Assembly: GCF_003334305.1 (NCBI RefSeq)
Contig: NZ_QOWS01000008.1
From: Escherichia coli
GTDB lineage: Bacteria; Pseudomonadota; Gammaproteobacteria; Enterobacterales; Enterobacteriaceae
Direction: 5' to 3' (one strand)
DNA length: 64,000 nucleotides
The translations under genes and the position numbers were made by a program. Each line of letters begins with the position of its first letter. Position 1 is the stretch's first letter. Of this stretch, positions 4,586 through 4,792 are shown in pieces. The notes below the pieces were generated by a model. It ran no database searches, was not told where the DNA came from, and saw only the letters and a program-made list of their open reading frames with translations.

Positions 4586-4792
4586 GAGTCTGTCCTTATT
4601 GGAAAAATTGAGAGGGATGTAACGGTTGGTCATCTCAATCACATTACGCACGCCCCGGGTCATCAGGTCGTTCATCTCCTGGCAAATGAACGCATACTGA
4701 TCAAGGCGGCAGTCCACGTTGTTTTTAAAGCCGGAGAGATCAATATGCAGATGCTCATGGGCGAGGGTGTAACCCGTCGGATCAAAACTCAT
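4586..4792 (-). pseudogene. php: php (phosphotriesterase homology protein) remnant: first ~58 codons fused through the yhfU leader into yhfU
   Basis: N-terminus [20 protein letters not shown]... matches Php, but the ~292 aa TIM-barrel body is missing; junction after ...EMTNRY. Confidence 0.65.

Follow-up and report, generated by a model that had tools for sequence, protein, structure and literature searches.

A 682-bp deletion has reduced php to a short remnant that reads through into yhfU in a recent sub-clone of Escherichia coli

The closest described counterpart of the locus studied here is the E. coli Php protein (YhfV; PF02126), a member of the amidohydrolase superfamily with structures deposited as PDB 1BF6 and 4LEF. 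The reference Php sequence (292 aa) aligns end to end with both entries, which carry the name 'phosphotriesterase homology protein'. Proteins of the Php and phosphotriesterase (PTE) family are expected to form a full-length (β/α)8 barrel of about 290–330 residues and to hold a complete set of ligands for a binuclear metal site. In 1BF6, we take these ligands to be the HxH motif of strand 1 together with a bridging Glu/Lys, His, His and Asp of strands 4, 5, 6 and 8. The literature that we searched yielded no functional study of php, yhfU or the yhfS–yhfZ genes, and no Php substrate or php phenotype. The genes were found there in gene lists and in connection with the genome-reduced strain DGF-298 only, with yhfS–yhfZ among the regions removed in that strain. 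A literature search on strain A7, the source of the sequence analysed below, gave no paper in which its accession is cited.

We analysed a stretch of 64,000 bases, referred to here as the window, which matches the chromosome of E. coli strain A7 (orangutan faeces, USA; NZ_CP028767.1, 4408634–4472633) with 0 mismatches over its 64000 bases. The gene order around the locus is frlD-frlR, followed by yhfS-yhfT-yhfU-php-yhfW-yhfX-yhfY-yhfZ and then trpS-gph-rpe-dam. In the list of open reading frames, yhfT (2916–4220) and yhfW (4789–6015) flank a single ORF of 186 aa. Php appears in the window only as a remnant, and one that is already in the public record as the RefSeq/PGAP pseudogene AOY58_RS21115 of NZ_CP028767.1 (4568..4792 of the window, minus strand; 'phosphotriesterase-like protein; incomplete; missing C-terminus'), which has the same sequence. 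PGAP keeps yhfU as a separate gene and makes no mention of an in-frame read-through, whereas GenBank submissions present the 186-aa ORF as a 'DUF2620 family protein'. The chimera thereby bears a name that gives no hint that its first 58 residues are php, which calls for caution in annotation.

We used the locus of strain 120899 (L001) as a php-intact reference for aligning the deletion. Here php is annotated as a gene of 879 nt encoding 292 aa, and the interval is 100% identical to the window. The alignment showed that exactly 682 bp are missing, corresponding to php nt 177–858; a first-pass annotation of the window had put the loss at roughly 0.7 kb. The left-flank match to L001 ends at window position 4617 and the right-flank match begins at the same position, an overlap of 1 nt, and php nt 1–176 are fused to nt 858/859–879. 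The 5′ remnant (4618..4792, minus strand) comprises php nt 1–175, that is codons 1–58 (...EMTNRY) and the first two bases of codon 59, and is identical to php of strain 120899 and to the Php of PDB 4LEF/1BF6. The junction is the single base at 4617..4617 (minus strand), where the coding strand has a T that php nt 176 and nt 858 could each have supplied. The 3′ remnant (4596..4616, minus strand) is php nt 859–879, CCCTCTCAATTTTTCCAATAA, read in the +1 frame.

Since 682 equals 3 x 227 + 1, and is not a multiple of 3, the deletion moves the reading frame by +1. The junction region reads HPSQFFQ* in frame 0, the normal Php C-terminus, and IPLNFSNKDRL in the frame of the ORF; CCCTCTCAATTTTTCCAATAA itself (4616–4596) gives PSQFFQ* in the php frame as against PLNFSNK in the remnant frame. 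The junction therefore confirms the earlier recognition of an out-of-frame PSQFFQ-stop as the end of Php. The php stop codon TAA at 4598–4596 is out of frame in the remnant and is thus skipped. At the other end of the gene, the php start codon overlaps the yhfW stop codon as ATGA, an overlap that the remnant retains. The interval 4586–4792, marked out in the first-pass annotation, fits the php remnant plus the 10-nt spacer between php and yhfU.

Comparison of the remnant with E. coli Php indicates how much of the enzyme is left. The two share the first 58 residues, including HxH, the last 21 nt of the gene are kept, and the position is the same, between yhfW and yhfU, with flanks 100% identical to strain 120899. 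However, residues 59–285 of 292 are absent and a frameshift affects the C-terminal 7 codons, leaving 58 of 292 residues in frame, and only HxH (His12, His14) of the metal ligand set. Because the deletion removes everything from residue 59 on, the other metal ligands cannot be present. Judged from its sequence, the remnant would be unable to form the Php barrel or the binuclear metal site, and the loss of 78% of the fold points to a loss of Php enzymatic function. By locus and sequence it is what is left of a Php/PTE-family gene, without the structure that defines the family. The description of php as a short remnant without its TIM-barrel body is borne out by these alignments: codons 1–58 and 21 out-of-frame 3′ nucleotides are all that remain of a reference gene of 292 codons, rather than of one of about 65.

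The earlier view that the cluster here lacks its hydrolase also holds for the genome as a whole. With full-length php as the query, A7 has a single matching place in which 20% of php is covered, and no second copy. The other seven genes of yhfS–yhfZ are intact. Six of them share their protein accessions with the php-intact strain, and in YhfS a single substitution (window 1905) separates A7 from strain 120899.

The php remnant runs in frame into yhfU, as had been claimed, forming a read-through ORF of 186 aa (4232..4792, minus strand) that is made up of Php(1-58), an 11-aa frameshifted linker (IPLNFSNKDRL) and YhfU(1-117). Residues 1–58, ending in EMTNRY, match reference Php exactly, and the YhfU part is complete (MKKIGVAGLQ...LINHLK). 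The 10-nt spacer between php and yhfU (4586..4595, minus strand), GGACAGACTC when read from 4595 to 4586 (evidence string AATAAGGACAGACTCATGAAA), is unchanged from the reference and is translated as linker in the fusion ORF. Spacer and preceding AA together provide the Shine-Dalgarno-like AAGGA of yhfU, and the AAGGA-N7-ATG layout is kept. The yhfU ATG (4585–4583) is in phase with the remnant frame. The gene that follows, yhfU (DUF2620, Pfam PF10941; 4232..4585, minus strand), is intact and encodes a complete 117-aa domain; its start codon and its ribosome-binding site are both preserved, and its product carries the same accession, WP_001297518.1, as in a strain with intact php. The read-through ORF terminates at the normal yhfU TAA, 11 nt ahead of the yhfT ATG; since it meets no premature stop, we do not expect strong polarity on yhfT or yhfS.

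We also compared YhfU to solved structures. The search returned only RpiB-type ribose-5-phosphate isomerases, as non-significant matches with E about 0.4, which hint at an RpiB/LacAB-like fold. YhfU (4232–4585, minus strand) contains the motif IGACNTGAGAALSIAIA, which may resemble those of RpiB/LacAB-like proteins.

Gene callers give the 186-aa ORF as PF02126 plus PF10941, and it has been deposited as HAH8985578.1, RCQ09348.1 and UMT20209.1, all named 'DUF2620 family protein'. The annotation of the fused ORF, its stop-free frame into yhfU and the presence of the allele in several assemblies would agree with Php(1-58)-YhfU being a new protein that is functional and under selection, such as a YhfU that has gained an N-terminal module. 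We regard this as highly improbable. One frame in three is in phase and 11 stop-free codons are needed, so chance suffices easily to produce the continuous frame that joins the two genes. The 58 residues make up only part of a (β/α)8 barrel and are unlikely to fold alone, while the yhfU start and ribosome-binding site are untouched. Conservation across diverged lineages and signs of selection were not found: the allele is limited to a sub-clone, with no further sequence change, and the 90%-identity cluster of the 186-aa protein has a single member, which indicates that there is no related fusion elsewhere. The fusion of php to yhfU is most likely incidental.

Next, we explored how common the truncated form is across E. 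coli. With the 561-bp interval of the window as the query, 5075 of 5426 complete genomes match the locus. We sampled 40 of these evenly down the ranking of the 5075 matches. In 39 of them, two matching pieces covered 100% of the query and together spanned 1243 bp, as compared with a span of 561 bp in the window, and php was annotated between the pieces. The fortieth, strain 2017.20.01CC, matches the query in part and has a different deletion. When full-length php was used as the query, at least 80% of the gene was found in 5072 of the 5075 genomes, at identities of 95–100%, compared with 20% in A7. A 120-bp query with the junction at its centre gave an unbroken match in one complete genome only, A7, among the 5075 with the locus; strain PCP06021 covers it in two pieces over 663 bp, owing to a different deletion of 139 bp.

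These distributions leave a negligible chance that the short php is ancestral and that other E. coli gained 682 bp. The long form is present in 5072 of the 5075 genomes throughout the 95–100% identity range, and it constitutes the complete enzyme fold solved by crystallography. Furthermore, the out-of-frame PSQFFQ* tail makes sense only as a leftover of a longer gene.

That just one complete genome of 5426 contains the junction is also what an assembly or sequencing artefact would give, in which php is present at full length and 682 bp were dropped in assembly. However, the same junction and ORF occur on 8 contigs of different assemblies, which may all stem from a single strain, through re-sequencing or as clonal isolates. 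They include the complete A7 chromosome, a 192-kb contig of the 2017 draft assembly GCA_002476345.1, and the Logan assemblies, made from raw runs, of SRR10357279 and SRR1815431. The contigs that we retrieved for the exact 186-aa ORF are identical to the window. In addition, php is unique and non-repetitive, with one place per genome, and a collapse during assembly is therefore not expected. The lesion is reproducible at the level of assemblies, and an artefact is very improbable indeed; the junction is not the error of a single assembly that the first-pass annotation had asked to see ruled out.

To place the deletion in time, the exact YhfS variant of A7 was taken as a lineage marker. The variant is present on 15 contigs, of which about half (8 of 15) carry the 186-aa ORF, GCA_002476345.1 and SRR1815431 among them. 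Others, namely GCA_022976695.1, GCA_016671585.1 and ERR3329224, encode the 292-aa php and the 117-aa yhfU. The orthologue of php is intact at this locus in close relatives. Over 5–9 kb (about 8.4 kb), the 682-bp indel is all that separates GCA_016671585.1 and ERR3329224 from the carriers, with 0 SNPs, and strain 120899 differs from the window by 1 SNP in 6.5 kb. An indel of 682 bp with no SNP among sister sequences shows that the deletion arose recently and inside one clone. The loss of php is thus a recent event in a sub-clone of one E. coli lineage that includes A7. The A7-like and GCA_016671585.1-like assemblies form a natural pair, php-null and otherwise isogenic, which is usable for work on yhfS–yhfZ function.

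A separate change was seen on one of these php-intact contigs. In GCA_022976695.1 (L009, about 6851–7688), a 7-bp insertion, as judged against the A7-like sequence, splits frlC into ORFs of 84 aa and 203 aa.

We compared the ends of the A7 deletion with those of the two other php deletions. Short direct repeats at the deletion endpoints, suggested earlier as something to look for, were searched for in the reference php, and the repeat scan found no family spaced 682 bp apart. It returned only an 8-nt inverted pair (L001 3433–3440 and 4058–4065) that does not bracket the deletion ends. A near-repeat, GTTAC(A/G)T, occurs at php nt 170–176 and 846–852, and its register is 6 nt off that of the junction. 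For A7 we rejected slipped mispairing between repeats, given the lack of a direct repeat at 682-bp spacing and this offset of the near-repeat. This leaves illegitimate recombination with 1-nt microhomology as the best description of the event.

The deletions in PCP06021 and 2017.20.01CC are, like that of A7, sporadic, strain-specific and internal to the same cluster. PCP06021 (L004 2039–2778; L001 coordinates 3627–3765) has an independent php deletion of 139 bp, bounded by imperfect 18-nt direct repeats, ACGTACGCGCCGAGATCG and ACGTATGCGTGGAGATCG, that lie 139 bp apart. This deletion looks like the classic slipped-mispairing type, unlike that of A7. In 2017.20.01CC (L002 1728–3176; L001 coordinates 2777–3886), an independent deletion of 1110 bp between TTTCAG hexamers takes the 3′ part of php, all of yhfU and the 5′ end of yhfT. 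The yhfS gene of this strain is frameshifted as well, and together with the 1110-bp deletion this indicates a cluster that is decaying. Both deletions thus have repeats at their ends, imperfect over 18 nt in one case and the 6-nt TTTCAG in the other, whereas the ends in A7 share 1 nt only.

The yhfS–yhfZ genes as a whole behave as an accessory unit. Two identical, GC-rich copies of a 43-nt direct repeat, TCCCCTCACCCTAACCCTCTCCCCAAAGGGGCGAGGGGACCGT, are located at 1740..1782 and 8757..8799 (both plus strand), 7017 bp apart from start to start. Both copies are outside the php deletion. TCCCCTCACCCTAACCCTCTCCCCAAAGGGGCGAGGGGACCGT has just these two copies in the window, and they bracket yhfS–yhfZ exactly. 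For a synthetic 'empty site' query, we joined the frlR end to the trpS side through one repeat copy. A single unbroken match of 684 bp was obtained in 342 of 5426 complete genomes, O157:H7 strains included, with identities of 97.7–99.4% in the best 12 of the 342 matches. These 342 genomes, in which one copy of the repeat is all that lies between frlR and trpS, account for nearly all of the 351 genomes without php. The yhfS–yhfZ cluster thus varies as a presence/absence cassette with the 43-nt repeat at its borders, a pattern that either deletion between the repeats or insertion may have produced.

Comparison of A7 with strains that lack the whole cassette, such as O157:H7, reveals that the same pathway is lost in both and that the cluster is dispensable. 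The extent differs: the full 7017 bp is gone and one repeat copy is left in the empty sites, whereas in A7 php alone is hit and seven genes are intact. For a dispensable cluster under weak or conditional selection, the occasional decay of one gene is to be expected.

We propose that a spontaneous 682-bp deletion, with essentially no homology at its ends, inactivated php in a recent sub-clone, and we hold this explanation with high confidence. The deletion would destroy the phosphotriesterase-homology hydrolase, leaving 58 residues with HxH, and the +1 frame happens to be free of stops up to the yhfU ATG, with which it is in phase. Translation initiated at the php ATG, which is coupled to the yhfW stop through ATGA, would then be expected to yield Php(1-58)-linker-YhfU, a protein of about 21 kDa, while native YhfU could still be initiated at its intact ribosome-binding site. 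The fusion is probably translated and without a function of its own, and the loss of php probably reflects weak selection on an accessory cluster.

A different account of the same deletion is that the loss of php was positively selected, for example through a harmful effect of Php activity in culture or in the primate gut. Three independent php deletions among 5075 genomes speak for it, as does the share of carriers among the YhfS-variant contigs, about half (8 of 15), although one clone may have been sampled repeatedly in these contigs. Three lesions in 5075 is nevertheless a low rate, with 5072 genomes keeping at least 80% of php, and the 342 genomes with empty sites have lost the entire cassette and not php specifically. 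The literature that we searched has no php phenotype on record. We consider a selected loss unlikely, and infer neutral decay of php instead. Less probable still, at a very small chance, is a reading in which either the fusion is made and alters YhfU or YhfS–Z output, and was selected in the primate-gut sub-clone, or the loss of php is adaptive by blocking one step of an uncharacterised, PRD/GntR-regulated catabolic pathway. On the preferred explanation, a spontaneous deletion under weak selection, the A7 allele is a routine, recent pseudogenisation in a cluster to which the searched literature assigns no function, and which about 6% of E. coli genomes do without.

Finally, we scanned the window for other features. 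Counts from a promoter and terminator scan of 1600–8900 were near the shuffle expectation, with nothing new at the junction, and an Rfam scan of the whole window gave no family at the gathering score. Away from the yhfS–yhfZ cluster, the annotation gives rpnA (recombination-promoting nuclease; 40145–41023, plus strand) as a pseudogene that has an internal stop. Between pckA and envZ (30809–31481, plus strand) lie a gene for a RelE/ParE-family toxin and one of the NadS family. Downstream of glpD (60484–64000, minus strand), three 'hypothetical protein' genes and a gene for a PstS-family substrate-binding protein are found, and this region may be an accessory island.
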